Counted from the stretch's first letter, positions 6,928 through 57,829 are shown. The stretch: 64,000 nt of DNA from a virus (IMGVR_UViG_3300042330_000854:44077-108076), one strand, 5' to 3'. Numbers and translations: made by a program. The notes: a model not told the origin generated them from the letters alone.

Positions 6928-7263
6928 ATGAGATTTATTTATTATATTGATGGTGAAAAATTTACAACTAACAATTATGATGAAGTTCCGATTTATGAAA
7001 TTTCATTTTTAGATGAAAATACACCTGCTTTAGAGGATTTAAAAACTGGTCATAAACGTTGGTGTTTTAAAGGAAGAATTTTACATCGATTAACTGGTCC
7101 TGCACATATTGCAGATAATGGAGTAGAAGATTTTTGGTTAAATGGAATTTATTACCGAAGAATAAAAGAATGGATTAAGGTTCATCCAAATCCTGATCTT
7201 TATTTTGATGCAATCGGGATAAAAACAGAAACCGATAAAGTTATTTGGTACTTACAAAATTAA
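6928..7263 (+). CDS. HRLTGPA-family protein, copy 1 (tail A)
   Basis: YYIDG...DENTPALE...HRLTGPA...HPNPDLYFDAIG..ETDKVIWYLQN. Confidence 0.9.
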   Translation: MRFIYYIDGEKFTTNNYDEVPIYEISFLDENTPALEDLKTGHKRWCFKGRILHRLTGPAHIADNGVEDFWLNGIYYRRIKEWIKVHPNPDLYFDAIGIKTETDKVIWYLQN

Positions 7264-7266
7264 TCC

Positions 7267-7295
7267 TTGACAAAAAACAGAATATTTTCTATATT
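7267..7295 (+). promoter_or_regulatory. sigma70-type early promoter cassette
   Basis: TTGACA-17-TATATT, spacer GAATATTTTC. Confidence 0.8.
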
Positions 7296-7325
7296 AAATT
7301 TATCAACTAATTAACGGAGAATGAT

Positions 7326-7517
7326 ATGTCCTATTTTACTGAAGAAAATATGGTTGGCCTCTCTAAAGAAGACCTTGAAATTCTAAATAAAACTTTTTCT
7401 AAAGAACTGAAAAAATATTATGAAGAGCATCGTGAAGTTGATACCGTGATTATTGATTCAATTGCTACAAAAGTTTTTGATGATTTTTGTGAAAAGTATG
7501 ATGCAATTTGTCAATAA
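7326..7517 (+). CDS. small early protein
   Basis: Promoter, GGAG SD and downstream terminator. Confidence 0.75.
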   Translation: MSYFTEENMVGLSKEDLEILNKTFSKELKKYYEEHREVDTVIIDSIATKVFDDFCEKYDAICQ

Positions 7518-7549
7518 AAAAGGGGGGAGAAACAATTCTCCCCCTTTTT
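7516..7549. terminator. bidirectional intrinsic terminator
   Basis: A-tract GGGGGAGAA-ACAA-TTCTCCCCC T-tract. Confidence 0.85.
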
Positions 7550-7566
7550 GTTTAATTAATTAACGA

Positions 7567-7986: not shown

Positions 7987-8029
7987 TTTATATATCCTCT
8001 ATTTTTAGGAATAATTTATTCCATTATAT

Positions 8030-9463
8030 TTATTTAATGTTTTTCTTAAATTTTGGTCTTTTATATATTGAATTTTCTGGATAAGGATTTGTATTACTTC
8101 CAAATGGAATAGCAGATGATGCTACACTTGATGCGGTAGTTGATTCTTTTATTATTATATTATTTTTTTCAATAAAATTTAAAATTTCATCTTTAATTTT
8201 CTTTATTTGTGGATTCTCATCAAAATATTTTGATTGATTTATTGCTGTAAAACCAACCAAATCATTTTTATTTTTTATAATAAATTTTTTAAAATCAAAG
8301 ATGAAATTTTTATCTAATTTAGAATAATCTAATTCATTTTTAATGTTTAATAAAATATAATATAAATTTGTTATTTTATTAATATATGGATTATTTTTCA
8401 TTTCATTAATTATATTGGTAAATGAAACAACTTCTTCATTATTTTCTTTATCAATATATTTTGATATTTTTTTCAAATATTCACTACGATAAGCATTTGG
8501 ATCAATGGCAACTGTTAATGCTCTTTGAACTCGTTCCATTAATTTTAAAACAACATCTAATTTTTCTTCGTAACCTATGCCACCAGGGGCGCGGATTTCT
8601 AAATAACCCAAATCTTTAAATTTTCTAAAATTTACAGCTTGATATTTTTTTCCCATATTATCTAAAACCCATTGATTAGTAAATGAATTATCTTTTGTTA
8701 TTTCATCGTTTTTATTTTGTCCATTTAAATAACCATCCAAATCAGAAATTTTATTTGAAATTATTTTTGCATAACCATTACTTTCTCTATTAAATAATTT
8801 TACAACAAAAACATCATCAAAAAATACTAAAAATTTTAATAAATCAATTTTATCAAATTCAAATGTTCCAACATTTAAATGTAAACCTGTTGTTGAATTA
8901 GTTGATAAATTATCATCATCTTGAATCATAAAAAATATTTGTTCTAATGCAACTTTGGCTTCATTATAATTTAAAACAGGTGTGACAATTTCTCTGCCTT
9001 GTGGATTAATACTATCATCGGTAACAATTTGCCATTCATTTTGTTTTGGAAGTTCTAATTCTTCTAATTTATTTGTAAAATAAGTTTGTAAATTATGTTT
9101 GTTTTTGAATAAACTTAATTGTTCATAAAATAAATCATCAATTATTTCTTTTAAGTTATAATATTCATTAACATCATAAAAACCCCAATTAAGCATATTA
9201 TGCTCGCCATTATCCCAGGGAATCATATAACTTATACTTTTACTAATTAATGGCGTATCGGAATATTCAGCATACATTTTTTTAAATTTATCTTTTTGAC
9301 CACGAATATAAATGTCATAAAAATGTTCATATAAATCATCATCATCATCTACTTCATCTAAATCACAAGCTATTTCAAATTCAAACCCCCAAGTTAAATC
9401 TAAACTTGATTGATTTTTTCTGTTTTGTGCCATATTTCTTTCTTGTAATTGTATTAAACGCAT
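8030..9463 (-). CDS. putative amidoligase (COOH-NH2 ligase) family protein
   Basis: WGFEFEI, VTDDSI, GREIVTPVL, TNSTTGLHLNVG, KYQAVNF, LEIRAPGG. Confidence 0.8.
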   Translation of the reverse strand: MRLIQLQERNMAQNRKNQSSLDLTWGFEFEIACDLDEVDDDDDLYEHFYDIYIRGQKDKFKKMYAEYSDTPLISKSISYMIPWDNGEHNMLNWGFYDVNEYYNLKEIIDDLFYEQLSLFKNKHNLQTYFTNKLEELELPKQNEWQIVTDDSINPQGREIVTPVLNYNEAKVALEQIFFMIQDDDNLSTNSTTGLHLNVGTFEFDKIDLLKFLVFFDDVFVVKLFNRESNGYAKIISNKISDLDGYLNGQNKNDEITKDNSFTNQWVLDNMGKKYQAVNFRKFKDLGYLEIRAPGGIGYEEKLDVVLKLMERVQRALTVAIDPNAYRSEYLKKISKYIDKENNEEVVSFTNIINEMKNNPYINKITNLYYILLNIKNELDYSKLDKNFIFDFKKFIIKNKNDLVGFTAINQSKYFDENPQIKKIKDEILNFIEKNNIIIKESTTASSVASSAIPFGSNTNPYPENSIYKRPKFKKNIK

Positions 9464-13575: not shown

Positions 13576-13905
13576 ATGACATACGTTTACTATGTTGATG
13601 GTGAAAAATTTACAACCGATAATTATGATGATATTCCTTGGGATGATATTTCTTCACCCAATGAAAATACACCAGCGTTTGAAGATTTATCAACAGGTGA
13701 AAAAATTTGGTGTGAAAAAGGGTATCGTTGGCATCGATTAACTGGACCGGCGTACTTTGATAATGATAGATTTTGTTTTTGGCTAAATGATAAAGAATAT
13801 GAAAATATTGAAGAATGGATAAAAGATCATCCAAATCCCGATCTATACTTTGATGTATTAGGTTTAAATGAAACCGAAAGAGTTTTGTGGTTTTTACAAA
13901 ATTAA
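13576..13905 (+). CDS. HRLTGPA-family protein, copy 2 (tail A)
   Basis: SSPNENTPAFE...HRLTGPA...HPNPDLYF...ETERVLWFLQN. Confidence 0.9.
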   Translation: MTYVYYVDGEKFTTDNYDDIPWDDISSPNENTPAFEDLSTGEKIWCEKGYRWHRLTGPAYFDNDRFCFWLNDKEYENIEEWIKDHPNPDLYFDVLGLNETERVLWFLQN

Positions 13906-13974: not shown

Positions 13975-14076
13975 AATGGACAATATTATGGGATGTTAGA
14001 AGATTTTTTGAAAGATAATCCAAATAAAAATAGAATTTTTAAAATAATAATGAGATTGAAATATAAAAATGTATAA
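13975..14076 (+). pseudogene. C-terminal remnant of an HRLTGPA-family gene
   Basis: Translates NGQYYGMLEDFLKDNPNKNRIFKIIMRLKYKNV*, matching the family's LNG..Y...WLKDHPNQ...F...M.LKY tail; no start/SD at its 5' end. Confidence 0.6.
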
Positions 14077-14695
14077 TATTACTAATGAAGAATTATCAAC
14101 TGCAACATATGTAAGTTTAGATCAATCGTATGTTTATTGGATGTTGAACAATGAATTTTTTCATAGAGAAAATGGACCAGCAGAAATTATTACTATAGAA
14201 AAAACAAATAGTAGACAATTTTTATTTTATCTGTATGGTCAACATTATGTCACTATTGACGAAAATAATCCTATTAATGATCAAACTTTACATAATTTTA
14301 ATCGTTATCTAAAAAATATTCCCAATCAAAATAAAAAATTTCAAAAAGAAATGATTGAAAAATTTGTATATAATTTTTCAAATAACAAAATGGATATTAT
14401 TTATTGGACTAAAAAAGGAAGATTTGAAACTAATGATGTAGATAATATTCCTTGGAATGAATTACACTCACCAAATGATCTTCTGCCTGCTTATGTTTAT
14501 TATCCTAATAATTATAAAGAATGGCGTTCAAACGCCAAAAAACATCGATTAACTGGACCAGCAATAATTAACCCAAATGGAAAGATCATATTTTATCTTG
14601 ACGGTATAAAATATGATTCTTTAGAAGAATGGCTATCAATTCATCCAAATCAAAGTGAAATTTTTAAAAAAGAAATGATTAAACGATGGAGTTAA
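14069..14695 (+). CDS. HRLTGPA-family protein, copy 3 (two domains in tandem)
   Basis: HRENGPA...IPNQNKKFQKEM, then HSPNDLLPAY...HRLTGPA...HPNQSEIFKKEMIKRWS. Confidence 0.85.
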   Translation: MYNITNEELSTATYVSLDQSYVYWMLNNEFFHRENGPAEIITIEKTNSRQFLFYLYGQHYVTIDENNPINDQTLHNFNRYLKNIPNQNKKFQKEMIEKFVYNFSNNKMDIIYWTKKGRFETNDVDNIPWNELHSPNDLLPAYVYYPNNYKEWRSNAKKHRLTGPAIINPNGKIIFYLDGIKYDSLEEWLSIHPNQSEIFKKEMIKRWS

Positions 14696-16471: not shown

Positions 16472-16777
16472 TTAGCTGTATTTTAAAAGCATTTCAACTT
16501 GGAATGTATTGTCTTGATTAGGGTGGTCTTTTAACCAAGAATGAATATTATTAAAATAATACCCAGATAACCAAAATTGTACTCTGTCGTCAGTATAAAT
16601 AACCGCTGGGCCAGTTAATCGATGATAAATTCTTCCTTTTTTACACCAAAATTTAAATCTTGATTCTTTTTCATAAGCAGGTGTACTTTCATCAGGTGAT
16701 GATATTTGATAAATAATAATTTCACTGGGATAATTTGTTGTAAATTTTTCACCATCAATATAATAAATATATTTCAT
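16472..16777 (-). CDS. HRLTGPA-family protein, copy 4 (tail B)
   Basis: SSPDESTPAYE...HRLTGPA...HPNQDNTFQVEMLLKYS. Confidence 0.9.
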   Translation of the reverse strand: MKYIYYIDGEKFTTNYPSEIIIYQISSPDESTPAYEKESRFKFWCKKGRIYHRLTGPAVIYTDDRVQFWLSGYYFNNIHSWLKDHPNQDNTFQVEMLLKYS

Positions 16778-17187
16778 TGTTTAAGAGCCAACAAAACAGG
16801 CATTGTATCATCTTTAAAATAAAATCTATAAATTGTTTTAACTGTAACATAAGCATGAGGGTCTTTATCTAAATCTAAAGCTTTATCGATTTTGAATCCC
16901 CATTTATTACAATCTTTAACATCATCAATGATAAAAATTTCACTATCATAATAATAAGGAGATATAAAATCTTTATCAAAATTTTTAAATCTTCCATCGT
17001 TTAAATTTAGTTCATTTAGGTTTAATGAAATAATGGTAATATCATTGATGGTTTTATTAGTAATTTCTTTTTCTTTAATTTTATATTTTAATATTGATTT
17101 ATCAACATAACGGTCAATATACATTGTATGTTCAAATTTTTTAAAATCTAATAATCCAAAACTTCCAAATGTAAAATACTTGCTCAT
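16774..17187 (-). CDS. hypothetical protein ending YRFYFKDDTMPVLLALKQ
   Basis: Coupled ORF. Confidence 0.7.
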   Translation of the reverse strand: MSKYFTFGSFGLLDFKKFEHTMYIDRYVDKSILKYKIKEKEITNKTINDITIISLNLNELNLNDGRFKNFDKDFISPYYYDSEIFIIDDVKDCNKWGFKIDKALDLDKDPHAYVTVKTIYRFYFKDDTMPVLLALKQ

Positions 17188-18207: not shown

Positions 18208-18516
18208 TTAACTATATTTTAATAACATTTCTACTTGAAAAGCATTATCTTGATTTGGATGTTCTTCTAACCAATCCTTAACATTATTATATCTTTTATT
18301 GTTTAAATCAAAATATTCTATTCCGTCACCCGCAATAACTGCTGGTCCCGTTAATCGATGACAACGCCAACCTTTTAAACACCAAAATTTAAACCCATTT
18401 GATAAATTTTCATAAGCAGGCGTACTTTCATCTGGGGAAGAAATATCATCTAAAGGAATTTCATAATAATTATCGGTTGTATATTTTTCATCATCAACGT
18501 AATAAATAAAATTCAT
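18208..18516 (-). CDS. HRLTGPA-family protein, copy 5 (tail B)
   Basis: SSPDESTPAYE...HRLTGPA...HPNQDNAFQVEMLLKYS. Confidence 0.9.
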   Translation of the reverse strand: MNFIYYVDDEKYTTDNYYEIPLDDISSPDESTPAYENLSNGFKFWCLKGWRCHRLTGPAVIAGDGIEYFDLNNKRYNNVKDWLEEHPNQDNAFQVEMLLKYS

Positions 18517-18761
18517 CTAAACGTCTTTCTTTGATTTTGTAAATCGTTAATCTTTCGTTCCAAATCATCCAAACGATTTAATCTTAAAATTTTCTGTTCT
18601 AAAAAAGCAATTCTTGTTTCTAAATTTTTTATTGTTAATTCTAAATTATTAACAACAATTCCCTGAGTAACAATTAATTTTTTATTATCATCTAAAGGTT
18701 CTTTTTGCTTTACTTTTTTTCTAGGAAACTTTTTATCTAATTTTGAATATATGCCGCTCAT
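18513..18761 (-). CDS. small coiled-coil protein
   Basis: Heptad-like LETRIAFLEQKILRL. Confidence 0.65.
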   Translation of the reverse strand: MSGIYSKLDKKFPRKKVKQKEPLDDNKKLIVTQGIVVNNLELTIKNLETRIAFLEQKILRLNRLDDLERKINDLQNQRKTFR

Positions 18762-19971: not shown

Positions 19972-20781
19972 ATGACTATTGATCGTAAAATTTTAGGAAA
20001 CATTGCCAACACAGGACAACAATTAACTGTAACTGAATTTTGGCTTCCTGGTGAAATAAGTTCTGCCACAAATGGCTGGATTAAAAAACAATTAGGTGTT
20101 AGTAAATTCTTAGTTGTTAATCCTAACACAAGCAATGAAGGTATTGTTGTTTTACAAAACAGCACTTTAACCGCTGCTGGACAAGCTAGAATAGCAGTTG
20201 TGCCAAGTGGCAATGGTAGTGGTGCCGTTTTATCACCACGCTATCGTGCGCTTTCAGGAACGGTTGCTGCTGGTGGTAGCGGTTATGCAGTTAATGATAC
20301 CTTAACCGTAACGGGTGGTGTTGTATTAACTGTTGCAACGGTAAATGGCGGTGGCGCTATTTTAACCTTTACTGTTACTACAAAAGGCAACGTAACAAAT
20401 ATTCCTGCTGATCCTGTAACTCCAACTGGAACTTCTGGGGCAGGTGTAAATGCCACAGTTAATTTAACTTGGGAAGTTAATACTGTAACTATTTCAAATG
20501 GTGGTACTGGTTATACAGCAGCTAATGTTGTATTTTCTGGCGGAACATCAAATGCAACTGGTACAGCAACAATTACATCTGGTGTAGTAACTGGTATTAC
20601 TGTTGCAACTCGTGGCAGCTATGAAGCAAATGGAACTGCTGTAATTACAACTGTTGGTACAACTGAATATTTAAAATCTTTACAATATCGCAAAGCTATT
20701 ACTTTTAATGGTAATAGTTATATTTGGGATAAAAACGAAACCGCCGATGAAGTTGGTGAAGCAAACGTAGATTTTTCATAA
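19972..20781 (+). CDS. Gly/Thr-rich virion structural protein
   Basis: GGSGY/GGTGY/RGSY repeats; upstream TAAATA and GGAG. Confidence 0.75.
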   Translation: MTIDRKILGNIANTGQQLTVTEFWLPGEISSATNGWIKKQLGVSKFLVVNPNTSNEGIVVLQNSTLTAAGQARIAVVPSGNGSGAVLSPRYRALSGTVAAGGSGYAVNDTLTVTGGVVLTVATVNGGGAILTFTVTTKGNVTNIPADPVTPTGTSGAGVNATVNLTWEVNTVTISNGGTGYTAANVVFSGGTSNATGTATITSGVVTGITVATRGSYEANGTAVITTVGTTEYLKSLQYRKAITFNGNSYIWDKNETADEVGEANVDFS

Positions 20782-20785
20782 AACT

Positions 20786-20814
20786 AAAAAGGGGAGAATT
20801 AATTCTCCCCTTTT
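20786..20814. terminator. bidirectional terminator
   Basis: A5-GGGGAGAATTAATTCTCCCC-T4. Confidence 0.85.
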
Positions 20815-20816
20815 AA

Positions 20817-21143
20817 TTAAAACCGAACTAGAATCCGATATTTAAAAATATCACAATAATCTTGTTCCCAAGCAGTTTCGGCATTATGTCCCAATTCTTT
20901 TAGTTTGTTTACCACAAACAAAGAATAATCTTGAGTTGTTTCCCAATTACCAACTTCAACAAAATCTTCACCTTCACGATAAGCTTTTACAATTTTATCA
21001 AAATATTTTTGTTTTGTTTTTTCATACCTAAGTTCAAATTTTTGTTCTTTAGTAAGAACCGATTTTTGTTTATTACTTGTGATCTTAGACAAACTTTGCT
21101 TACGGGCAGAAACATGTTGGGAAATCAAATCATCATAATTCAT
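20817..21143 (-). CDS. early hypothetical protein
   Basis: Promoter cassette and AAGGAG SD. Confidence 0.75.
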   Translation of the reverse strand: MNYDDLISQHVSARKQSLSKITSNKQKSVLTKEQKFELRYEKTKQKYFDKIVKAYREGEDFVEVGNWETTQDYSLFVVNKLKELGHNAETAWEQDYCDIFKYRILVRF

Positions 21144-21233: not shown

Positions 21234-21551
21234 TTAATTTTGTAAAAACCACAAAATTTTATCGGTTTCATTCATACCTAAAGCATCAAAATATAAATCT
21301 GGATTTGGGTGTTCATTAATCCATTCTTTTACATTGTTATAACGTTTATTATGTAACCAATATGATTTTTCACCTGTACAATCAATATATGCTGGTCCCG
21401 TTAAACGATGCCAACAACAGTTTTCACTCCAAATTTTCTCCCAATAAGAAATGTTTTCAAATACAGGCGTATCAACATCCGATGGATTATCCCCATGTTT
21501 TTCAAACGTATATCTTTTATAATCAATGTAATATATAAATCTATATTTCAT
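21234..21551 (-). CDS. HRLTGPA-family protein, copy 6 (tail A)
   Basis: HRLTGPA...HPNPDLYFDALGMNETDKILWFLQN. Confidence 0.9.
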   Translation of the reverse strand: MKYRFIYYIDYKRYTFEKHGDNPSDVDTPVFENISYWEKIWSENCCWHRLTGPAYIDCTGEKSYWLHNKRYNNVKEWINEHPNPDLYFDALGMNETDKILWFLQN

Positions 21552-23674: not shown

Positions 23675-23992
23675 TTAACCCCAACGTTCAAGCATTTCTT
23701 TTTGAAATGTTTCATCTTGGTTTGGATGGTGTTTTAAAAAATCTTGAATTGTACGGAATTGGCGATGATTATACCAATAAACTTTAGTGCCATCAACAAA
23801 CATAGCAGCCGGGCCATTTTCTCGATGCCAAATCCATCCTTTTTTACACCATAATGAAAATCCTAATTTGCGATTAATCAAAGCAGGCGTTTCATCATTG
23901 GGCGAGCAAAGTTCAAAAATTCCTGGTAATTCATTAATATCATTAGTGTTAATTTCTTCACCATCAACATAACAAGTATATAAAAATTCCAT
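23675..23992 (-). CDS. HRLTGPA-family protein, copy 7 (tail B variant)
   Basis: CSPNDETPAL...HRENGPA...HPNQDETFQKEMLERWG. Confidence 0.85.
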   Translation of the reverse strand: MEFLYTCYVDGEEINTNDINELPGIFELCSPNDETPALINRKLGFSLWCKKGWIWHRENGPAAMFVDGTKVYWYNHRQFRTIQDFLKHHPNQDETFQKEMLERWG

Positions 23993-24588: not shown

Positions 24589-24617
24589 ATTATAGAAAAT
24601 TTTCCTGTCTTTGTCAA
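24589..24617 (-). promoter_or_regulatory. early promoter cassette
   Basis: TTGACA-17-TATAAT with GAAAATTTTC. Confidence 0.9.
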
Positions 24618-24919
24618 ATACTTTTTACAAAAAATTCTTGAAGACTGGCCCCAAAATCAATCAGTTGTTCTTTAGTTAATTCCTTACCACGAAATTCTTG
24701 TGGAAGATTTTTAATAGAGAGATAAATAAATCGAGCACCCCGGTTGTTAATTTCAGCAATAATATCGATTGGTAAAATACCAATAACAATATCGCCTTGT
24801 TTTAGTTTAGAAGTATTATTATCAACCCAATGCGTAATAATTTCTGGCGCATCAAAACCTTTTTCGTTAAGCCATTCCAATGCCCCAGAATGGCGGGTAA
24901 TAAAATAAACATTGCTCAT
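24614..24919 (-). CDS. csx16: Csx16 (VVA1548)-family protein
   Basis: YFITRHSGALEWL...GDIVIGILP...AEI..RGARF..LS...LP.EFRGKELT.EQL...GA.LQEF family signature. Confidence 0.85.
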   Translation of the reverse strand: MSNVYFITRHSGALEWLNEKGFDAPEIITHWVDNNTSKLKQGDIVIGILPIDIIAEINNRGARFIYLSIKNLPQEFRGKELTKEQLIDFGASLQEFFVKSI

Positions 24920-26155: not shown

Positions 26156-26464
26156 TTATCCATATTTTAACAACATTTCAATTTGAAAAGCATTATCTTG
26201 ATTTGGATGCGCGTTTAACCAAGCTTGAAAATTTTTATATTCTTTCCCATTTAACCAAAAATATTCAGTCCCATCAAAATCAATTAAAGCTGGTCCAGTT
26301 AATCGATGCCAAATTCTTCCTTTTTTACACCATTCTTTAGACCCATCAGTTAAATCTTCCCAAGCTGGTGTGTTTTCATCTAGCGATGACATTTCATCCC
26401 AGGGTATTTCATCCCAAACATCAGTTGTAAATTTTTCACCATCGACGTAATAAATAAACTTCAT
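26156..26464 (-). CDS. HRLTGPA-family protein, copy 8 (tail B)
   Basis: DENTPAWE...HRLTGPA...HPNQDNAFQIEMLLKYG. Confidence 0.9.
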   Translation of the reverse strand: MKFIYYVDGEKFTTDVWDEIPWDEMSSLDENTPAWEDLTDGSKEWCKKGRIWHRLTGPALIDFDGTEYFWLNGKEYKNFQAWLNAHPNQDNAFQIEMLLKYG

Positions 26465-26832
26465 TTTTTCAACTCCCAAAGAACATAATCAGTATTATTT
26501 TCAAAAATAACTTCAATCCAATAAATTAAAAAACAAGAATTAAATCCTTGACTTTTATGTTTCATACAAAATTTAATTTTACCTAATGGTAAAATTTCAA
26601 TTAAAAAATTATGCAAATTATGCAAACTTAAAGTTAATCCATAATAACTAGATAATAACGTTATTAAATCATCATTATCAATAAATTTATCAAATAATTT
26701 TAAAATATAATCTTCATCATCCGAATGATACTCAAAAACATTTATTGATTGGCGATTTTCAATTACTGTTAATTCTTCAATTAATTCTTTTAAAAAATAC
26801 TGATTTTCTTTTTGTAAAAGTATAAATCTCAT
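26461..26832 (-). CDS. hypothetical protein ending IFENNTDYVLWELKK
   Basis: Coupled ORF. Confidence 0.7.
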   Translation of the reverse strand: MRFILLQKENQYFLKELIEELTVIENRQSINVFEYHSDDEDYILKLFDKFIDNDDLITLLSSYYGLTLSLHNLHNFLIEILPLGKIKFCMKHKSQGFNSCFLIYWIEVIFENNTDYVLWELKK

Positions 26833-28848: not shown

Positions 28849-29178
28849 TTAATTTTGTAAAAACCACAAAACTCTTTCAGTTTCATTTAAACCAATGGCA
28901 TCAAAATAAATATCGGGATTTGGATGATCTTTAATCCAATCATGAACGTTATCGTAATCTTTTCCATTTAAAAAATATTGTTCTATTCCATTTCTCGAAA
29001 TATAAGCAGGGCCAATTAATCGATGTAAAATTCTTCCTTTTTTACACCACAATTTTGTACCACTTGTACTTTCATAAGCAGGCGCATTTTCATCTAAAGA
29101 AGATATGTCTTTCCAAGGAATTTCTCCATACTTATTTGTAGTAAATTTCTTTTTATCAATAAAATAAATATAAGTCAT
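28849..29178 (-). CDS. HRLTGPA-family protein, copy 9 (tail A)
   Basis: HRLIGPA...HPNPDIYFDAIGLNETERVLWFLQN. Confidence 0.9.
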   Translation of the reverse strand: MTYIYFIDKKKFTTNKYGEIPWKDISSLDENAPAYESTSGTKLWCKKGRILHRLIGPAYISRNGIEQYFLNGKDYDNVHDWIKDHPNPDIYFDAIGLNETERVLWFLQN

Positions 29179-36704: not shown

Positions 36705-37040
36705 TTAATTTTTCAAATACCACAAGATTTTATCGGTTTCAGTAAAAACACCAATTTTATGAAAATACAAATCGGGATTTGGATGATCTTTAATCCATTC
36801 TTTAATATTGTCATAATGTTTGTCGTTTAACCAAAATCCTTCTTTTCCATTAGACCAAATATATACCGGGCCGGATAATCGATGATAAATCCACCATTTG
36901 TTACACCAATATTTTTCACCTGTTTGTGTATTCTCAAAAGCGGGCGTATCTTCATTTGGCGAAGAAATCCAACGCCAATAAATATCATCAGCATTATCAG
37001 TTGTATATTTCTTACCGTCAACATAATATATAAATTTCAT
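36705..37040 (-). CDS. HRLTGPA-family protein, copy 10 (tail A)
   Basis: HRLSGPV...HPNPDLYFHKIGVFTETDKILWYLKN. Confidence 0.9.
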   Translation of the reverse strand: MKFIYYVDGKKYTTDNADDIYWRWISSPNEDTPAFENTQTGEKYWCNKWWIYHRLSGPVYIWSNGKEGFWLNDKHYDNIKEWIKDHPNPDLYFHKIGVFTETDKILWYLKN

Positions 37041-39026: not shown

Positions 39027-39326
39027 TTAGCTGTATTTTAACAACATTTCAATTTGAAAAGAATTGTCTTGATTTGGGTGATCTTTTAACCAATCATGAA
39101 TATTTTCATATCTTTTCCCATTTAAATAAAAATATTTAGTTCCATTTGATGCAATATATGCGGGTCCAGTTAATCGATGATAAGTATAACCTTTAACAAC
39201 CCATTCTTTTACACCTGTAATTAAGTTTTCAAGTGCTGGTGTTTGTTCATTTGGGGATGATATCTCAAACCAAAGAACTTTATCTGAAATAAATTTTTCA
39301 CCATCAATATAATAAATATATGTCAT
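39027..39326 (-). CDS. HRLTGPA-family protein, copy 11 (tail B)
   Basis: HRLTGPA...HPNQDNSFQIEMLLKYS. Confidence 0.9.
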   Translation of the reverse strand: MTYIYYIDGEKFISDKVLWFEISSPNEQTPALENLITGVKEWVVKGYTYHRLTGPAYIASNGTKYFYLNGKRYENIHDWLKDHPNQDNSFQIEMLLKYS

Positions 39327-41342: not shown

Positions 41343-41735
41343 ATGCGATTTAACGATAAACTTCAAAGAAAATTTTATCAATTAGAACGAGAAAAGCGTT
41401 TGGTGGAACAAAATTATCAATGCTTTTATTGTAAAGAAATTATCACTAAAAATGAAGTAACTGCCGATCATGTAATTCCAATTAAACAAACAAAACGACA
41501 TAGCGATTGTAATATTGTTGCTAGTTGCATAAATTGTAATAGAAAAAAAGCAGCAATGACAATTGACGAATTTAAAAATTATAATTTTAAAAAAGTTCCT
41601 AATGAACTAAAAGAATTTTTTGAAATTTTAGAAACAAGAACGCGCAAAGCAGAATTTAATCTTGATATTAAAACTCACTTTACAAGTTTTCGCCATTGGC
41701 AAACTTATTGGCAAAAAAGGAATAAATGGAAATGA
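41343..41735 (+). CDS. HNH endonuclease
   Basis: CFYC...TADHVIP...NIVASCINCN.KK. Confidence 0.9.
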   Translation: MRFNDKLQRKFYQLEREKRLVEQNYQCFYCKEIITKNEVTADHVIPIKQTKRHSDCNIVASCINCNRKKAAMTIDEFKNYNFKKVPNELKEFFEILETRTRKAEFNLDIKTHFTSFRHWQTYWQKRNKWK

Positions 41736-42067
41736 GTAAAGTTTTTTATATTGATGGAATGAAAGTACCAGATGATGAATTTCCAGTTACTCCTTGGGAA
41801 CTTATTTCTTCACCCGACGAAAACACACCTGCTTTTGAAAATTTAGAAACAGGTTTTAAATCTTGGTGCTTAAAACATTATGTCTTGCATCGATTAACTG
41901 GACCAGCAAGAATTTTACCAAATGGGGCTTGTCAATTTTATCTTAATGGTAAAAATTATGAAACCGTAAAAGAATGGATTGTGGATCATCCAAATCCCGA
42001 TTTATATTTTCATAAAATTGGTGTTTTTACAGAAACCGATAAAATTTTGTGGTTTTTACAAAATTAG
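41732..42067 (+). CDS. HRLTGPA-family protein, copy 12 (tail A)
   Basis: HRLTGPA...HPNPDLYFHKIGVFTETDKILWFLQN. Confidence 0.9.
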   Translation: MSKVFYIDGMKVPDDEFPVTPWELISSPDENTPAFENLETGFKSWCLKHYVLHRLTGPARILPNGACQFYLNGKNYETVKEWIVDHPNPDLYFHKIGVFTETDKILWFLQN

Positions 42068-42184
42068 TTTTAAAGCGATTTAAAGCCTATTAATCTAATT
42101 AGCTACCCAACTACCTAAATCAATTTAAAACTGCTGTAACATGCCTCTAAATGCAATTAAACACCTATTTGAAAGAAAATATAA
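42068..42184 (+). repeat. intergenic element X, copy 1 (imperfect inverted repeat)
   Basis: TTTTAAAGCGATTTAAAGCC...GCTGTAACATGCCTCTAA...CTATTTGAAA shared with 57400-57517. Confidence 0.85.
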
Positions 42185-42514
42185 ATGATCATTTATTATA
42201 TCGATGGCAAAAAATATATAGCTAAAAAATATCAAAATATTCCTATATATAAAATTTCTTCACCTGATGAAAATATACCTGCTTATGAAAATTTAGATTC
42301 AGGTTTTAAATATTGGTGTAAAAAAGGAGATATTTTTCATCGATTAACTGGGCCATCAACAATTTTGGCTGATGGAACAAATTATTTTTATCTTAATAAT
42401 AAAAGATATATGAATATTCGAGAATGGATTAATAACCATCCAAATCCAGATTTATACTTCGATGCAATTGGATTGAATGAAACCGATAAAGTTTTATGGT
42501 TTTTACAAAATTAA
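42185..42514 (+). CDS. HRLTGPA-family protein, copy 13 (tail A)
   Basis: HRLTGPS...HPNPDLYFDAIGLNETDKVLWFLQN. Confidence 0.9.
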   Translation: MIIYYIDGKKYIAKKYQNIPIYKISSPDENIPAYENLDSGFKYWCKKGDIFHRLTGPSTILADGTNYFYLNNKRYMNIREWINNHPNPDLYFDAIGLNETDKVLWFLQN

Positions 42515-42537: not shown

Positions 42538-42852
42538 ATGACAATTATTTATTATATTGATGGTGAAAAATTTATTGTTGATGATTGGTTTAAAATTGAA
42601 AACATGCTATTTGATTTTTCTTCACCAAATGAAGAAACGCCCGCTTGGGAAAACTTAGAAACTGGTAAAAAAGTATGGTGCTTAAAAGGATATCGTTATC
42701 ATCGCTTAACAGGACCAGCAATTTATTGGGCATCTGGTGATTATTCTTTTGGGCTATATGGTATTTTTTATGATGATATTTATGATTGGTTAAAAATACA
42801 TCCAAATCAAGATAACTCTTTTCAAATTGAAATGTTGTTAAAATACACATAA
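42538..42852 (+). CDS. HRLTGPA-family protein, copy 14 (tail B)
   Basis: HRLTGPA...HPNQDNSFQIEMLLKYT. Confidence 0.9.
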   Translation: MTIIYYIDGEKFIVDDWFKIENMLFDFSSPNEETPAWENLETGKKVWCLKGYRYHRLTGPAIYWASGDYSFGLYGIFYDDIYDWLKIHPNQDNSFQIEMLLKYT

Positions 42853-42960
42853 TTTGATTATATGAATAAATTTTCTATTCATGGAGAGCCGCAGAAAACA
42901 AAGAAATATTGAGAGTGTTCGTACAACTGCAACTTAACAAAAATTAAATTTAAAAATTAC
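42853..42960 (+). repeat. intergenic element Y, copy 1
   Basis: 48-nt block AATAAATTTTCTATTCATGGAGAGCCGCAGAAAACAAAGAAATATTGA and 35-nt block TACAACTGCAACTTAACAAAAATTAAATTTAAAAA identical at 57830-57938. Confidence 0.9.
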
Positions 42961-47396: not shown

Positions 47397-47762
47397 TTAA
47401 TTTAACATATCATTATAACCAAATAAATTAGTCATTTTTGATTTAAAAGATTCACTTTTATTTGGGTGATCTTTAAGCCAATCTTGTAAATTATTATAAT
47501 AACATTTATCATTTAAATAAAATTCATATGTTGCATTATAGCGAATAGCTGCTGGTCCAGTTAAGCGATGAAATTTATTTCCTTTTAAACACCAAATTTT
47601 TTCACCTGTTTTTAAATTTTCAAAAGCAGGTGTATTTTCATTTGGTGATGAAATTTTATACCAAGGAATTACCAAATAATTATCGCTTGAAAATTTCTTA
47701 CCATCGATATAGTAAATATATCGATTATTTTTTTTAAATAAATTAAAAATGTATTTTAACAT
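47397..47762 (-). CDS. HRLTGPA-family protein, copy 15 (tail B variant)
   Basis: SSPNENTPAFE...HRLTGPA...HPNKSESF. Confidence 0.88.
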   Translation of the reverse strand: MLKYIFNLFKKNNRYIYYIDGKKFSSDNYLVIPWYKISSPNENTPAFENLKTGEKIWCLKGNKFHRLTGPAAIRYNATYEFYLNDKCYYNNLQDWLKDHPNKSESFKSKMTNLFGYNDMLN

Positions 47763-47789: not shown

Positions 47790-47818
47790 ATAATAGAAAA
47801 TTTTTTATAATTTGTCAA
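47790..47818 (-). promoter_or_regulatory. early promoter cassette
   Basis: TTGACA-17-TATTAT with AAAATTTTC. Confidence 0.85.
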
Positions 47819-47822: not shown

Positions 47823-48164
47823 TTAATTTTGTAAAAACCATAAAACTCGTTCTGTTTCTGTTAAATTGATTACATCAAAATAAAGATCGGGATTTGGATG
47901 ATTATTAAGCCAATCCTGAATATTTTTATATGGTTTTCCATTTAAATAAAATTCTCCAAAACCATCACCCCAAATTCTTGCTGGGCCGCTTAATCGATGC
48001 AAATACGAATGTTTATTGCGCCATTCTTTATATCCAGTTTCTAAATCTTCTAAAGCAGGTGTATTATCATCAGGCGAGGAAATTTTAATATAAGTTCTGA
48101 GGTTATAAAGTATATTAGTTTTATTTTGAATACCGTTTTCATAATATACATAAATATATTTCAT
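47823..48164 (-). CDS. HRLTGPA-family protein, copy 16 (tail A)
   Basis: HRLSGPA...HPNPDLYF...ETERVLWFLQN. Confidence 0.9.
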   Translation of the reverse strand: MKYIYVYYENGIQNKTNILYNLRTYIKISSPDDNTPALEDLETGYKEWRNKHSYLHRLSGPARIWGDGFGEFYLNGKPYKNIQDWLNNHPNPDLYFDVINLTETERVLWFLQN

Positions 48165-52362: not shown

Positions 52363-52623
52363 ATGTTTGAAACTGCTTCTAATTTCTTTTTTAAAATTGT
52401 TACTGCATTAACAAGTGGTTCTGTAGAATCAATTATAGTCATCTTAATTTTAATTGTTTGTTATTTTGTTTATGAAAATTGGCGATTAAAAAAAGATAAC
52501 AAATATTATGCTGAACGTACAGATAAAATTATTGATGATTACTACAAAGGAAACCTCTCAATTAGTGACGCCTTAAATGGATTAAGACATGTGCTTAGTG
52601 AAATTAAAGGTAAAATAAAATGA
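52363..52623 (+). CDS. small single-TM protein (holin-like or sensor partner)
   Basis: One TM and coiled tail; coupled to PAS gene. Confidence 0.55.
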   Translation: MFETASNFFFKIVTALTSGSVESIIVILILIVCYFVYENWRLKKDNKYYAERTDKIIDDYYKGNLSISDALNGLRHVLSEIKGKIK

Positions 52624-53882
52624 TATGGGGCATCTTTAAGAAAAATAATAATAAAGATATTAAACGTGAAGAACAAGACAAAAAAATCTTGTTAAGTCAA
52701 CAATTTCTTATGGATGCTGCCATGTCAACTGCTGAAACTGCACGAGAAATAACAGCTTTTATAAAACAACAACTTTTAAATTCTCAAGCAGAATTATCAA
52801 GCACAGTAAAAATAATTCAAGATGCTTTAATTATTAGTAATGAAAAAAATGAAATAATTGGATTTAACCCAGCAGCAGAAAATATTTTTGATTGTAAAGC
52901 TGAAACGGTTTTAGGAAAAAATTTACTAACTTTATTTGTACAAACAAATAATAAACCAATTAATGATGGTAATTTTTGGAGTATTTTAAAAAAAGAAGAA
53001 GTTTGGGATCATAATTTTGATGGTGAACCTATGAAAAATATATTAGGTAAACGTCAACGTGGAGAAACTTTTTGGATTGATTTAACTGTTAGTGAATTGC
53101 CTTTACATGATGAAAAGAAATTTTTATTTATTGTTAGAGATTTAAATTCAGAAATGCGAATTCGCCAATCAGAATTTGATCATAAAAGTATTTTTCATAA
53201 TGCAAAAGATTCTATTTTAATTTTACACAATCATAAAATTTTAAAAACAAATAAAACATTTTGTGATTTATTAGGTGTTAAATCAGAAGAAATTGAAGGT
53301 GGATTATTTGAACATTTAATTGATTTAAATGAAAGAGAAAATATTTTTAATATACAAGAAAAACATTTATCGGGAAATATTTCAAATGCCAATTATGCAT
53401 TTACTTTAAATTATAATAATATAAAATTAAAAATGGTTGCTACTGAATTTCCATTTGTTTGGCAAAATAAAAAATGCATTCTTTGTACTTTAAATTCATC
53501 TTATGAAATGGAAATTATTAACGATTTCTTAAAATTGGATAATAATCAATTTTGTAATGTAAGTGATAATACGCCAGATTTAGTTTGTATTTTTGATAAA
53601 GATTTAAAAATAAAATACGTTAATAATTCTTTTAAAGATTTTTATCAAACAACCGAATTGGATTTAATTTCTGATTATTTGCCCTTTACCAGAAGAAATA
53701 ATTTTACTCAATTTTTAAAAGAATTAGTCTCAACAAAAAGAAATCAATTTTCATGTAGAAATGGAGATAGAGAAAATATTCAAGATTGGTGTTTTTATCC
53801 AATTGTAAAAAATAATGAAATCGTAGAATATCATGGAATAGGTCGAGATATAACACATATAATAAATGAATTTAATAAATGA
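52620..53882 (+). CDS. multi-PAS domain protein without kinase/output domain
   Basis: DALIISNE..EI.GFNPAAE.IF...GKN...GETFWIDL...FIVRD; second PAS DSILIL...N.TFC.LLG; third PAS PDLVC.FD...KYVN...GIGRDIT. Confidence 0.85.
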   Translation: MIWGIFKKNNNKDIKREEQDKKILLSQQFLMDAAMSTAETAREITAFIKQQLLNSQAELSSTVKIIQDALIISNEKNEIIGFNPAAENIFDCKAETVLGKNLLTLFVQTNNKPINDGNFWSILKKEEVWDHNFDGEPMKNILGKRQRGETFWIDLTVSELPLHDEKKFLFIVRDLNSEMRIRQSEFDHKSIFHNAKDSILILHNHKILKTNKTFCDLLGVKSEEIEGGLFEHLIDLNERENIFNIQEKHLSGNISNANYAFTLNYNNIKLKMVATEFPFVWQNKKCILCTLNSSYEMEIINDFLKLDNNQFCNVSDNTPDLVCIFDKDLKIKYVNNSFKDFYQTTELDLISDYLPFTRRNNFTQFLKELVSTKRNQFSCRNGDRENIQDWCFYPIVKNNEIVEYHGIGRDITHIINEFNK

Positions 53883-54196: not shown

Positions 54197-54204
54197 ATAC
54201 TACT

Positions 54205-56229
54205 ATGGTAAACAATTTTACACTCTCAGCAGTTGGAGATAAATTACAATTAGGTAAACAAGGTGGAAAAATTGTTTTAGAAAATGGTAAAATTGTTTTT
54301 AAAAATAATCAAGAAACACAATTAATTAATATTCAAGCCGCTAGTCCAACTAATAACAATGATGTTGCTACAAAACAATATGTAGATGGATTAACTTTTA
54401 ATTTAGCTTCTGCTGTTTTACAAAATCCAGACGCAAATGCACAAATTTTATACACAAATTCTCTTAATGAATTGTATAAAACATCAATTAATAAAAGTTT
54501 ATATTATCCTGCTGTTGCTGGTGAAATTGGAATTTTAAATTATGAATATGTTCCTGGCGATTGTCGTCGTTATGGTATTTTTCCAGATGGTATTACAAAT
54601 TGGGAAGGTAGTAATTTATCCGGTAGAGTTATTAATTTTATGACTAATTGCGCATTGCCTAATATTATAGGATATATGCCTCCAGGAATTTATAATACAA
54701 GTATGAATTGGAGCAATACTGCTTATTCTGGCGCAAAAGTTATTATGGACGGTGTACAGTTAAATGGTATTTTTCATGTTCAATCTTCAGCAGAACCCGC
54801 AATAAATGATCCTAAATTAACTAATTTAAGATTTTATGGTAATATTACAATACTTGATAGATTGGGGTTAAACAATATTCAAGATGTTATTTTTGATAAT
54901 GTTAGAATGAAATCCGATGCTGCAAATAATTTAGCAACACCAGGAAGCAAAGGCCGAGGAATTCATATTTATTTTGGCTGCGATGATGTTAGAATAAACT
55001 CATTAATTGTTGATGATTGCGAAAATGGTAATAATACTGATGCTGCGTTGGCTATTGATGGAAATGGCGCTAACCCAACTAATATAAGAATTAATCGTGT
55101 TTGGATTAAAAAATCAGATTGTCATGGCGCTTATATTACTGGATTTAATCATTTTATTGATGAATTAAGAATTGATGAATATGCAAAATTACAACCAACA
55201 AGAGGAATCCAAGATTCAGATGGTTTGGCACAATCTCAACAAGGTTGTGGTGTTTGGCTAAATCGTGTAACTGGAACCATTAATAAAATTATAACAAATC
55301 AAGCAAATGAAACTAGAGTACATGCAATTTATGATGTTAGAATTGATGAAACTGGTTTAAACAATTCAAATGAATTAACTATCGGTTCTATAACAATGCT
55401 TAATGTTGGCGTTGGTGGATCAGGAAGAGGTATGTGTATTGGTGATCGAGAATATGCAACAGGTTCTGGACAAGTAAATGTTAATATAAATGATATTACT
55501 GCTTATGTTGCAACAAATGCAGTTTTAACTTCTGGTTTTGAAATTGTTCAAATTAATCAAAGAACAAGTAATACAAGAGCAAATATAAAAAACAATATTA
55601 ATCTTTATAATCCAAATACAAATACGGGCTTAAAAGTTGAAGTAGGGGCCAGGTTTTTATTAAATGGTATTTTGCGTTATACAAATTTGGGAAGTGGTAT
55701 TTCTCGCGGAACAGCTTTAAATGTTTTAGGTTATGCTAAAATAATCGGTGGTGTTGATTATTTTCATAATGGAAGTTCTTTGGATGTTCCGGCTGTAAAT
55801 TGGGCAGCAACCAATGGATCATTTTGCGGTCCTATATTTTGTGATGCTAGTTTGGTTAATAATAAAAAAGCATTGGCTATTACTGGTTCTGGAACTGAAA
55901 TTGGACCATTAACAAGCAATAATTTACGTTCGGCTGCTGGTACAATTGCAATTAATATTCTTTCAAATACAATTATTAAATTAGGAAATATATCTTCAGG
56001 CAGTACAATTTTAGCTGGAACATTAGGAATACGATTAACTGGTACTATTTCAGATGTTTCATTAATAGGTGGCAGAATTACTGGGTTTGATACTGGAATT
56101 ACTAAAGGAACTGCAACTTTAACTCGATTAAGCGCATTGAATACTGTTTCTACAGGAAATACAACTAATACAACCTTAACTGTTTCAGATGGAACAAATA
56201 TAGGAACTGCTACAAACATATTTGCATAA
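54205..56229 (+). CDS. tail spike / right-handed beta-helix protein (depolymerase-like)
   Basis: LQLGKQGG..., PTNNNDVATKQYVD fibre motif, GDCRRYG, long Asn/Gly/Ile beta-helix-like region. Confidence 0.75.
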   Translation: MVNNFTLSAVGDKLQLGKQGGKIVLENGKIVFKNNQETQLINIQAASPTNNNDVATKQYVDGLTFNLASAVLQNPDANAQILYTNSLNELYKTSINKSLYYPAVAGEIGILNYEYVPGDCRRYGIFPDGITNWEGSNLSGRVINFMTNCALPNIIGYMPPGIYNTSMNWSNTAYSGAKVIMDGVQLNGIFHVQSSAEPAINDPKLTNLRFYGNITILDRLGLNNIQDVIFDNVRMKSDAANNLATPGSKGRGIHIYFGCDDVRINSLIVDDCENGNNTDAALAIDGNGANPTNIRINRVWIKKSDCHGAYITGFNHFIDELRIDEYAKLQPTRGIQDSDGLAQSQQGCGVWLNRVTGTINKIITNQANETRVHAIYDVRIDETGLNNSNELTIGSITMLNVGVGGSGRGMCIGDREYATGSGQVNVNINDITAYVATNAVLTSGFEIVQINQRTSNTRANIKNNINLYNPNTNTGLKVEVGARFLLNGILRYTNLGSGISRGTALNVLGYAKIIGGVDYFHNGSSLDVPAVNWAATNGSFCGPIFCDASLVNNKKALAITGSGTEIGPLTSNNLRSAAGTIAINILSNTIIKLGNISSGSTILAGTLGIRLTGTISDVSLIGGRITGFDTGITKGTATLTRLSALNTVSTGNTTNTTLTVSDGTNIGTATNIFA

Positions 56230-56292
56230 TTTTCTTGACAAAAATTGTTTATCAATCATAATTGTAAATTATTTTGTCAAAGGAAAATTATA

Positions 56293-57066
56293 ATGAAAAT
56301 TTCATACGCAAGCGATATCCACCTTGAATTTGGTGGCTTTAAAATCTCTAAATTAGAAACTGATTTAATCATTTTAGCAGGCGATATATCAACTATCAAT
56401 AAAAATCAAATTTTAGAAAATTTAATTGTTGAATTAAGTGAATTTGCACCAATTGTTTTTGTACCAGGAAATCATGATTATTATAATAATCAAAATGGTT
56501 TAAACCATGCAAAATATTCTTTAATGAATTTAGAGTATCACTTAAACCGTTTATATTTAAAAAATAAAGTTGATATTTGTTATAAAGCAAAAAAATTAAC
56601 AATCAATGATATTGATTTTATCGGTTGTACGTTATGGACAGATTTAAACAAAAATAATCCATTGGATCGTAGATTATCTTTTCAATCAATGAACGATTAC
56701 GGCCAAATCAATATGACTGTTGATGAATGGATTATTGAAAATAATGCTCACTTTAATTTTATTAAAGAAAATTATAACCCAAATAACAAAACCGTTTTAA
56801 TTACCCATCATTTACCAACTGAACAAGCAATTGGAGAATTTTATAAAAATGATCCTTTAAATTTTAGTTTTTGTAATACACAATTAGATGAAATTTTAAT
56901 TGAAGCAAACAAAGAATTATATTGCATTCATGGACATTCTCATTCGCAATTAGATGAATATTATAAATTTAACAATAATGTAAGATTATTAAGAAATCCA
57001 AGAGGATATATTAATTATGAACCTTTTGCTGAAAATTGGCTTGGATTTAAAACGATAGAGATTTAA
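56293..57066 (+). CDS. metallophosphoesterase
   Basis: SDIHLE, LAGDI, VPGNHD, GCTLWTD, THHLP, HGHSH, NPRGY. Confidence 0.93.
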   Translation: MKISYASDIHLEFGGFKISKLETDLIILAGDISTINKNQILENLIVELSEFAPIVFVPGNHDYYNNQNGLNHAKYSLMNLEYHLNRLYLKNKVDICYKAKKLTINDIDFIGCTLWTDLNKNNPLDRRLSFQSMNDYGQINMTVDEWIIENNAHFNFIKENYNPNNKTVLITHHLPTEQAIGEFYKNDPLNFSFCNTQLDEILIEANKELYCIHGHSHSQLDEYYKFNNNVRLLRNPRGYINYEPFAENWLGFKTIEI

Positions 57067-57399
57067 ATGCATATTATTTATTACGTTGACGGAAAACAAT
57101 ATAAAACCGATTATTATTCTAATGTTCCTTGGGAAGATATTTCATCACCTGATGAAAATACACCTGCAATTGAAAATTTAGAAACTGGACTTAAATTTTG
57201 GTGTAAAAAACAATTTTTTCGGCATCGATTAACTGGACCAGCAAGAATTCGATCAGATGGAAAAGAAGAATTTTATTTAAATGAAAAAAGATATGAAAAT
57301 ATACGGGAATGGATTAATGATCATCCAAATCCCGATCTTTATTTCAATGCATTAGGAATGACGGAAACCGATAAAGTTCTATGGTTTTTACAAAATTAA
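57067..57399 (+). CDS. HRLTGPA-family protein, copy 17 (tail A)
   Basis: HRLTGPA...HPNPDLYFNALGMTETDKVLWFLQN. Confidence 0.9.
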   Translation: MHIIYYVDGKQYKTDYYSNVPWEDISSPDENTPAIENLETGLKFWCKKQFFRHRLTGPARIRSDGKEEFYLNEKRYENIREWINDHPNPDLYFNALGMTETDKVLWFLQN

Positions 57400-57517
57400 T
57401 TTTAAAGCGATTTAAAGCCGAGTTAGGTAATTAGTCACTCCAAATACCTAACTTAATCTAAAACCGCTGTAACATGCCTCTAATCGCATTTAAACCGCTA
57501 TTTGAAAAAAAAGATAA
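57400..57517 (+). repeat. intergenic element X, copy 2
   Basis: Homologous to 42068-42184; inner perfect stem AGTTAGGTA/TACCTAACT. Confidence 0.85.
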
Positions 57518-57829
57518 ATGAAATATATTTATTATATTAATAATATAAAATACGAAACCGATTATAAAAATCAAATTCCTTTTTATAAAATTTCATCACC
57601 TGATGAAAATACACCTGCTTATGAAGTTTTAGAAACAGGTCAAAAACTTTGGTGTGAAAAAGACGGAATTTGGCATCGATTAACGGGACCAGCGCATATT
57701 TTTCCTAATGGAGATAAATGGTTTTATTTAAATGGAAGGCATTATGGGGATGATGTTACATTTTGGCTTAAACATCATCCAAATCAAACAAATGCCTTCC
57801 AAGTGGAAATGTTGCTAAAATACACATAA
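57518..57829 (+). CDS. HRLTGPA-family protein, copy 18 (tail B)
   Basis: HRLTGPA...HPNQTNAFQVEMLLKYT. Confidence 0.9.
   Translation: MKYIYYINNIKYETDYKNQIPFYKISSPDENTPAYEVLETGQKLWCEKDGIWHRLTGPAHIFPNGDKWFYLNGRHYGDDVTFWLKHHPNQTNAFQVEMLLKYT

Follow-up and report, generated by a model that had tools for sequence, protein, structure and literature searches.

The DNA analyzed here, a 64,000-nucleotide stretch of a virus contig (hereafter, the window; bases 44077–108076 of the 108,076-bp IMG/VR contig IMGVR_UViG_3300042330_000854, referred to as G000), carries a family of small, diversified genes scattered over both strands. Each encodes a scaffold of ~100 residues that is fixed in sequence except at a defined set of hypervariable positions. 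With somewhat more confidence than doubt, we favor the interpretation that the family is a repertoire of specialized binders that act inside the infected cell, in host takeover or counter-defense.

A first-pass annotation of the window had listed 18 such genes and two partial copies. All 18 are intact open reading frames (ORFs) that align end to end, with 33–63% identity to the first copy, and they match the family profile with E values of 1e-36 to 1e-50 (Table 1). Residues P33, W45, H53, R54, G57, P58, H85, P86, N87 and F92 are invariant in the 18-copy alignment. The fused domain and the remnant that had been reported as partial copies are also real, and the partial copies number three because the two-domain gene includes a degenerate one; together with the full copies, they make up 9.6% of the window. 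Joins to unrelated genes by ATGA overlap or direct abutment, another element of that annotation, were confirmed by the gene coordinates. The copies end in one of two tails, type A (...HPNPDLYF.a.G..ET..vLWFLQN) or type B (...HPNQDN.FQvEMLLKY(S/T)), with nine of each in the window and 38 A and 33 B in the full set.

To place these counts in a genome, we considered the other sequences that carry the family. CheckV gives the 108,076-bp contig a completeness of 33%, so that the genome would measure ~325 kb. Five additional IMG/VR contigs carry the family; they are 99.99–100% identical in their overlaps, and thus one clone, and they join into a ~194 kb sister supercontig (IMG samples 3300042330, 3300042311 and 3300042864) that does not overlap the window's contig and has nearly nothing in common with it except the family. 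The two are likely parts of one genome, because their gene contents are complementary (the sheath gene is found in G000 only and a weak gp23-like match in the sister contigs G001 and G003 only), their sum of ~302 kb stays under the ~325 kb estimate, the same promoter and non-coding elements occur in both at 85–95% identity and the copies of both sets are fully mixed in the family tree (20 label changes, compared with 20.7 for shuffled labels). The profile count that the first-pass annotation had suggested gave 29 matches in the 108-kb contig (27–29 members; E down to 4e-50) and ~57 places or 51 ORFs in the sister contig set. In the non-redundant ~302 kb, 78 ORFs match the family and 71 are full length. 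The copies occur on both strands, at a density of about one per 3.6–4 kb.

Variable positions

Seventeen sites are hypervariable among the 71 copies, with entropies of ~2.7–3.6 bits (positions 17–19, 22–24, 39, 42, 44, 50, 52, 60, 62, 63, 66, 68 and 75 in the numbering of the copy at 57067). They consist of alternate strand residues and two loops, and they differ in nearly every paralogue. Along the strands, positions 42/44, 50/52, 60/62, 66/68 and 75/77 alternate with the near-invariant residues K43, W45, H53, I61, F69 and Y76. Because of this alternation along the hairpin strands, the variable residues are predicted to lie on one face of the sheet, and the conserved face would then be available for packing against the helices. 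The earlier proposal of a fixed scaffold with hypervariable positions is upheld by this alternation of the 17 sites with invariant ones; the role that it attached to the scaffold, as a library of binders or decoys, for example, against host defense proteins, is a hypothesis.

We compared nonsynonymous and synonymous change (dN/dS) site by site, as the first-pass annotation had proposed. A crude parsimony count on the copy tree gave a dN/dS of 0.58 overall and of 1.2–1.8 at the variable sites (dN over mean dS). In the closest paralogue pairs, the proportion of nonsynonymous differences (pN) at the variable sites is usually 0.5–0.65, compared with ~0.3 for synonymous differences (pS). The composition of the variable sites is also distinctive. 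Relative to the proteome, they are enriched two- to fivefold in Trp (7.3% versus 1.5%), Tyr (11.5% versus 4.5%) and Arg (7.9% versus 3.6%), although Trp and Arg codons are disfavored at 27% GC, and they are rich in acidic residues as well. At the hot spots of protein–protein interfaces, no residues are more strongly enriched than Trp, Tyr and Arg.

Proteins from outside the two contig sets, encoded on short contigs, include likely orthologues that are 81–94% identical to family members and thus closer than any paralogue pair. Related populations therefore exist, as the outside proteins P0241, P0186, P0254, P0166 and P0228 attest. In the five closest (87–94%), only 4 of 53 differences fall on variable sites, compared with ~21 expected from the paralogue rates (p = 1e-7). 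The composition bias and this conservation in close relatives therefore indicate that the variable sites are not neutral, and they contradict the neutral evolution that the first-pass annotation had named as the outcome speaking against its proposal. Because the variable sites are kept in the closest relatives, each paralogue retains its own residues, and each copy seems, from these sequence comparisons, to have its own conserved specificity.

Fold and relatives

AlphaFold2 (AF2) models of one type-A and one type-B copy reached predicted local distance difference test (pLDDT) scores of 94.7 and 97.5, respectively. Both consist of three β-hairpins followed by helices, three in the type-A model and two in the type-B model. 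As modeled, the protein is a minimal HRxDGPA (MORN-like) hairpin-repeat protein, with ~2.5 degenerate repeats and a helical W..HPN cap. An N-terminal half unit (YYIDG.KFTT) precedes a degenerate first unit (SSP(D/N)ENTPA.E..TG.K.WC.KG) and a well-formed second unit (HRLTGPA.I..dG...F.LNGK.Y). The motif of the HRxDGPA superfamily is present in full, with H53, R54, G57 and P58 invariant and the LNGK.Y hairpin in place.

An exhaustive profile search at E ≤ 0.001 retrieved 11,906 cluster representatives, almost all of them long proteins that are matched repeatedly (up to 22 stretches) by profile positions 30–80 only; some of these reach the cut-off of Pfam DUF6745 (PF20530; gathering score, 27 bits). 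The central 50 residues of the family thus match the repeat unit of the HRxDGPA/DUF6745 proteins of phages, giant viruses and bacteria, but the family is minimal by comparison, adds the W..HPN cap and has no PF20530 match. Full-length members with the cap form only 205 clusters among 5.8 billion, all annotated 'hypothetical' and mostly from short metagenome contigs. Among 132 long repeat proteins, a single one has the cap motif, and it is the family's own two-domain form. Six family members had no Pfam match at E ≤ 1, including DUF6745, MORN (PF02493) and MORN_2/YwqK (PF07661), and the PHROG and NCBIfam models likewise gave no match to the family. Among GenBank phages, we found no tblastn match for a family member and no megablast match for the region. 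A literature search retrieved no papers on the motif or on DUF6745.

Against solved structures, Foldseek gave no match at E ≤ 0.001, and the highest Z score obtained with VIA was 3.7 (Rhs-type hairpin sheets). Similarity to MORN structures is weak and far below significance (6jle, MORN4–Myo3a, Foldseek E 6.6; 1n6c, SET7/9 N-domain, Z 2.5), and the giant-virus 'MORN repeat' models in BFVD also remain below significance, at E 0.015–1.4. The look-alikes in BFVD and the ESM Atlas are uncharacterized ~100-residue proteins of uncultured phages, six proteins of phage Atu_ph07 and giant-virus proteins. Profile and structure searches agree with what the first-pass annotation had suggested from the HRxxGPA motif, namely, a link to the hairpin-repeat proteins that giant viruses and large phages encode. 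The three hairpins of the AF2 models weakly recall MORN repeats, which are ~23-residue repeats whose consecutive hairpins build an elongated protein-binding sheet. The motif of the family is HR.dGPA instead of YxGxW..G..hG.G, and the family adds a helical cap.

Two other assignments were rejected. A summed 86.6-bit match to the WD40 structure PDB 2ymu extends across 14 repeats, but no single stretch of it passes; the motif likeness is weak (SPD..T.A...K.W..G...LTG), the AF2 fold contains no blade and no propeller appeared in the Foldseek PDB or VIA searches. The series H53...N72...H86 recalls an HNH nuclease, but in multi-repeat proteins that are not enzymes the HR motif is a structural element of the repeat, and the three residues lack the ββα arrangement in the model.

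Tail exchange among copies

Tail type is distributed nearly at random on the tree of the cores (20 changes versus 23.9 with shuffled labels), and closest cores can carry unlike tails. This is the case for the copies at G003 4100 (A) and G001 58072 (B), with 84% DNA identity and a support of 0.975, and for those at G001 40450 (B) and G000 86261 (A; window 42185), with 81% DNA identity and a support of 0.988. Together, these observations indicate that recombination at the conserved junction has swapped tails between copies. The tail residues combine very low dN with ordinary silent-site change, and selection has therefore acted on the protein sequence and not on the DNA. A structure prediction for a heterodimer of adjacent A and B copies scored 0.01, which carries no weight either way.

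Age and spread of the copies

The closest pair of cores shares 74% protein and 84% DNA identity (median, 52%), and pS is ~0.3 even in the best pairs. The copy tree is star-like, and the nearest relative lies within 2 kb in only 3 of 71 copies. Recent tandem duplication was therefore rejected, as nearest relatives are adjacent in these three cases only and no pair exceeds 84% DNA identity.

A module of ~0.9–1.1 kb recurs at at least eight places with 72–76% DNA identity. It consists of a type-A copy, a 115–118-bp spacer, the next copy, a 95-nt element and a promoter. The spacer contains no promoter and showed no convincing RNA covariation. The 95-nt element is present in 13 copies in the ~302 kb and is 85–95% identical among them, compared with 70–75% for the flanking genes. 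It begins with a promoter-like TTGATA-16-TATTCA, has constant ends (GAGCCGCAG ... CTGCAACTTAACAAAAATT) around a variable middle and does not conserve its ATG. It may act as a small RNA or as a site of regulation or recombination; a search for covariation indicative of RNA structure gave nothing convincing.

Signs of mobility were sought in the family and around it. No RVT_1 match was found in G000–G003 (~300 kb), in searches to which control genomes responded, so that the absence of a reverse transcriptase reported for the window holds across this larger sequence. A target of a diversity-generating retroelement was rejected on this ground and for want of near-identical template copies. The contig set has no GIY-YIG nuclease and only two or three HNH genes in ~300 kb, one of which adjoins a copy. 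This HNH gene lies at 41343–41735 (+; Pfam E 2e-7), and its 36%-identical homologue at G001 123812–124372 is not beside a copy. The copy boundaries have neither terminal inverted repeats nor target duplications, and no nuclease, recombinase or reverse transcriptase domain was detected in the family proteins with Pfam, PHROG or NCBIfam.

Given the lack of recent copies and of signs of mobility, the expansion is old and was followed by shuffling and decay. The family is dispersed, recombined and partly decaying, and it shows no signs of being an active element. The first-pass annotation had counted great age against its own proposal; age argues against an actively amplifying element, and it is no argument against a repertoire of binders. 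Decayed copies with stops, frameshifts or mutual fusions occur at G003 20661–20987, G003 4578–4887, G001 99299–99605, G001 64988–65258 and G001 138982–139691. These broken copies, all in the sister contigs, point to ongoing decay in the same phage population, in a birth-and-death turnover.

Promoters and gene context

The window contains 16 occurrences of the consensus promoter TTGACA-N9-WWWTTTTC-TAWDWT, compared with 1.24 expected by chance (sites include 7267, 13920, 21191, 24589, 28196, 28817, 35881, 36673, 47790, 52238 and 57939). It is highly uniform and is accompanied by a conserved leader. Six of these promoters begin 4–15 bp past the stop codons of type-A copies, that is, after six of the nine type-A copies in the window; two lie ~110 bp past a type-B copy and one directly precedes the copy at 47397. 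Every type-A copy is followed by either a consensus promoter or another copy. The match to the σ70 consensus suggests that these are early promoters of the host type. In six cases, a copy overlaps (by ATGA) or directly abuts an unrelated upstream gene, and these genes include those for an HNH nuclease and a metallophosphoesterase; most of the other copies have a purine-rich ribosome site.

The surrounding genes encode rIIA, a 959-residue tail sheath protein, a baseplate wedge protein, a DnaB-type helicase and a primase, and the phage is an uncultivated T4-like jumbo myovirus related to Atu_ph07. By its sheath, the closest cultured relative is Agrobacterium phage Atu_ph07 (49% identity over the full length), followed by Sinorhizobium phage Phosso and then the Pseudomonas MIJ3 group. 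Atu_ph07, Phosso and MIJ3 have no full-length family members and 0–3 weak repeat-level matches, and no family copies were found in more distant relatives identified through the helicase or the sheath (27 kb in four contigs). The GC content of the copies (28.5%) is near that of the window (27.2%), and their composition is therefore native.

Alternative explanations

Several points weigh against a repertoire of binders. The one-face display is deduced from strand alternation and not from coordinates. The dN/dS counts are affected by silent sites near saturation, by AT bias at 27% GC and by recombination. The less close relatives (81–87%) favor changes at variable sites: P0173 differs at 6 of 17 variable and 7 of 85 other sites (p = 0.008), and P0157 at 7 of 17 and 12 of 85 (p = 0.016). 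Conservation of specificity is thus not uniform, and these pairs are taken to be orthologous. It is likely, though unproven, that both contig sets come from a single genome, and we know of no target, partner or phenotype for any HRxDGPA/DUF6745-like protein. Overall, the pattern of variation is one of specialization with episodic change rather than uniform drift.

The first-pass annotation had offered a mobile gene as its own alternative. In this scenario, the ~330-bp gene or the ~1-kb module would be a selfish cassette that spread by homing or by recombination at promoters, its protein being of little benefit to the phage. The dispersal of the copies on both strands, the inclusion of non-coding flanks in the repeated module, the overlap of one copy with an HNH gene and the pseudogenized copies in the sister contigs would fit such a cassette, and the promoters that closely follow six type-A copies recall the PeSL cassettes of T4-type phages (PMC2839356, PMC4122927). 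Nevertheless, we consider this scenario very unlikely. No copies are recent, the boundaries bear no inverted repeats or target duplications and no nuclease is a consistent neighbor, the two or three HNH genes being set against 78 copies with neither a reverse transcriptase nor a GIY-YIG nuclease. Scaffold and tails are under strong purifying selection at the protein level with normal silent change, paralogue-specific residues are kept in close relatives and copy positions are identical in five assemblies, albeit all of one clone. A structural or bulk role, which we consider quite unlikely, would make the proteins a virion decoration like that of the 'hairy' Atu_ph07, internal proteins, or small nucleic-acid-binding or regulatory proteins. 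Atu_ph07 itself bears hair-like fibers on its head and tail sheath (PMC7824862), and some copies lie between structural genes, as do those next to the genes for the sheath and baseplate; however, Atu_ph07, Phosso and MIJ3 lack full-length members, the extreme diversity of the exposed residues is unexpected in a bulk part and the copies are linked to σ70-type promoters. For nucleic-acid binding, the precedent is the ~35-copy Zn-ribbon family of phage G, suggested to comprise transcription factors or DNA-binding proteins (PMC7824862), but most copies of the present family are acidic (median pI 5.5; net charge −15 to +4).

The conservation of the two tails raises another possibility, in which ~70–90 variable domains would bind different host proteins while the constant tails dock to one or two shared partners, for example, a host protease, a chaperone or a phage machine. 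By analogy with the ankyrin/PRANC and F-box substrate-adaptor families of poxviruses, the outcome for the bound proteins might be degradation, sequestration or relocalization. Conservation of the tails extends to their final residue (WFLQN or LLKYS/T), with low dN and ordinary silent change, the tails have been swapped between closest cores with high support (0.975 and 0.988) and the A-then-B gene pair recurs at at least eight places. However, both tails pack as a helical cap in the models, so that a structural role explains their conservation, and the idea of an adaptor library is an analogy with no known partner. We regard it as unlikely.

In the interpretation that we favor, a repertoire of individual binders, a single small soluble protein was multiplied long ago in this lineage, and the family has evolved by birth-and-death turnover. 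The gene may have spread early as single copies and as the ~1-kb two-gene module, probably aided by recombination at the adjoining conserved promoter and leader sequences. Tail exchange between copies came later, and some copies are now decaying. The proteins would be made in the infected cell, either from σ70-type promoters or by translational coupling to neighboring genes. Purifying selection seems to maintain the particular variable residues of each paralogue, and each paralogue would most likely bind a different macromolecule of the host or of a competitor.

Features of the window

Coordinates of the copies and associated elements are collected in Table 1.

Table 1. Family copies, partial copies and module elements in the window
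Feature	Coordinates	Strand	Remarks
ORF containing the family-like part at 5969..6163	5462..6163	+	Unrelated 170-residue N terminus
Family-like C-terminal part (last hairpin and B-type cap)	5969..6163	+	Profile positions 40–102 against residues 170–231, E ~1e-8
Copy, type A (ends WYLQN)	6928..7263	+	Promoter 4 bp past stop
Copy, type A	13576..13905	+	Promoter 15 bp past stop
Family tail remnant in leader of next gene	13975..14067 (G000:58051-58143)	+	Profile positions 72–102, E 2e-4
Two-domain gene	14069..14695	+	Degenerate copy 14069–14380 fused to full type-B copy 14384–14695
Copy, type B (ends LLKYS)	16472..16777	−	ATGA overlap with upstream gene 16774–17187
Copy, type B	18208..18516	−	ATGA overlap with 18513–18761
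Copy, type A	21234..21551	−	Directly after rIIA-like gene 21552–23594; promoter 15 bp past stop
Copy, type B, divergent (HRENGPA)	23675..23992	−	Followed by hairpin with T-run and promoter-like site
Copy, type B	26156..26464	−	ATGA overlap with 26461–26832
Copy, type A	28849..29178	−	Promoter 4 bp past stop
Copy, type A	36705..37040	−	ATGA overlap with 37037–37252; promoter 4 bp past stop
Copy, type B	39027..39326	−	ORF and alignment
Copy, type A	41732..42067	+	ATGA overlap with HNH endonuclease gene 41343–41735; first of three-copy module
Module spacer, 117 bp	42068..42184	+	Second instance 57400–57517; at least 8 instances in ~302 kb
Copy, type A	42185..42514	+	ORF and alignment
Copy, type B	42538..42852	+	Followed by 95-nt conserved element and promoter
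Copy, divergent B-like tail (HPNKSESF...)	47397..47762	−	First gene behind promoter 47790–47818
Copy, type A	47823..48164	−	Promoter 5 bp past stop
Copy, type A	57067..57399	+	Abuts metallophosphoesterase gene 56245–57066; modeled, pLDDT 94.7
Copy, type B	57518..57829	+	Modeled, pLDDT 97.5
95-nt conserved non-coding element after type-B copies	57830..57925	+	Also 42853–42950 and G000 29916–30010

Other features of the window lie outside the family. A 101-residue protein of the Csx16 type (Cas_VVA1548, Pfam E 1e-27; 24614–24919, −) has its own consensus promoter and no cas genes nearby, and from its sequence it is a candidate counter-defense gene, a putative anti-type-III-CRISPR ring nuclease. 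The 308 bp at 58017–58324, which stand behind a consensus promoter, have a GC content of 43.5% and no ORF of at least 60 residues; they resemble a small gene split by a frameshift, with homologous pieces at G003 5077–5435 (84–91% identical) and G001 100903–100994. A 420-residue protein with three PAS domains (Pfam E 3e-18; 52620–53882, +) is of a sensor type unusual in phages. An Amidoligase_2 domain (Pfam E 1e-7) is present in a 477-residue protein encoded beside replication genes (8030–9463, −).

Comparison with known expansions

In a survey of 224 jumbo phages, Iyer et al. (2021, PMC7824862) called the ~35-copy Zn-ribbon expansion of Bacillus phage G unprecedented. That family and the ankyrin, MORN and F-box expansions of giant viruses (PMC6418002) resemble the present one in consisting of one small domain in tens of diverged, scattered copies for which a role in host interaction is presumed. 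The present family differs from them in its fold, in its 71 full-length copies in ~302 kb, in its two interchangeable tails and in its defined hypervariable positions. Within a single 108-kb contig the expansion is at least comparable to that of phage G, and per genome it is probably about twice as large. Repeat proteins are already known to have expanded in individual lineages of very large viruses, and the family described here is a new and extreme case of such expansion. The PeSL cassettes of T4-type phages (Arbiol et al. 2010, PMC2839356; Comeau et al. 2014, PMC4122927) offer a second parallel, as their early promoters flank small variable genes and the conserved promoters are possible recombination sites for gene shuffling, as may also hold for our family. 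Unlike those cassettes, most copies here have a promoter after them only and no stem-loop. The five related assemblies available for comparison are clonal, at 99.99–100% identity.

With probably more than 70 copies per genome and ~8–10% of the DNA, the family may be the largest gene-family expansion known in a phage. It amounts to a natural 'mutational scan', in which a scaffold of ~100 residues (pLDDT 95–97) with 17 specificity positions is sampled in at least 70 variants, within an HRxDGPA/DUF6745-like class that counts thousands of clusters in phages and giant viruses. The set could help to find targets, for example, host defense or housekeeping proteins, and the scaffold might serve as a compact binder scaffold. 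If the variable domains did act as adaptors for shared partners, the family would be a bacterial-virus counterpart of the poxvirus adaptor expansions and the largest known paralogue repertoire in any phage. More generally, our results suggest that very large phages can build diversified recognition repertoires, as giant eukaryotic viruses do.

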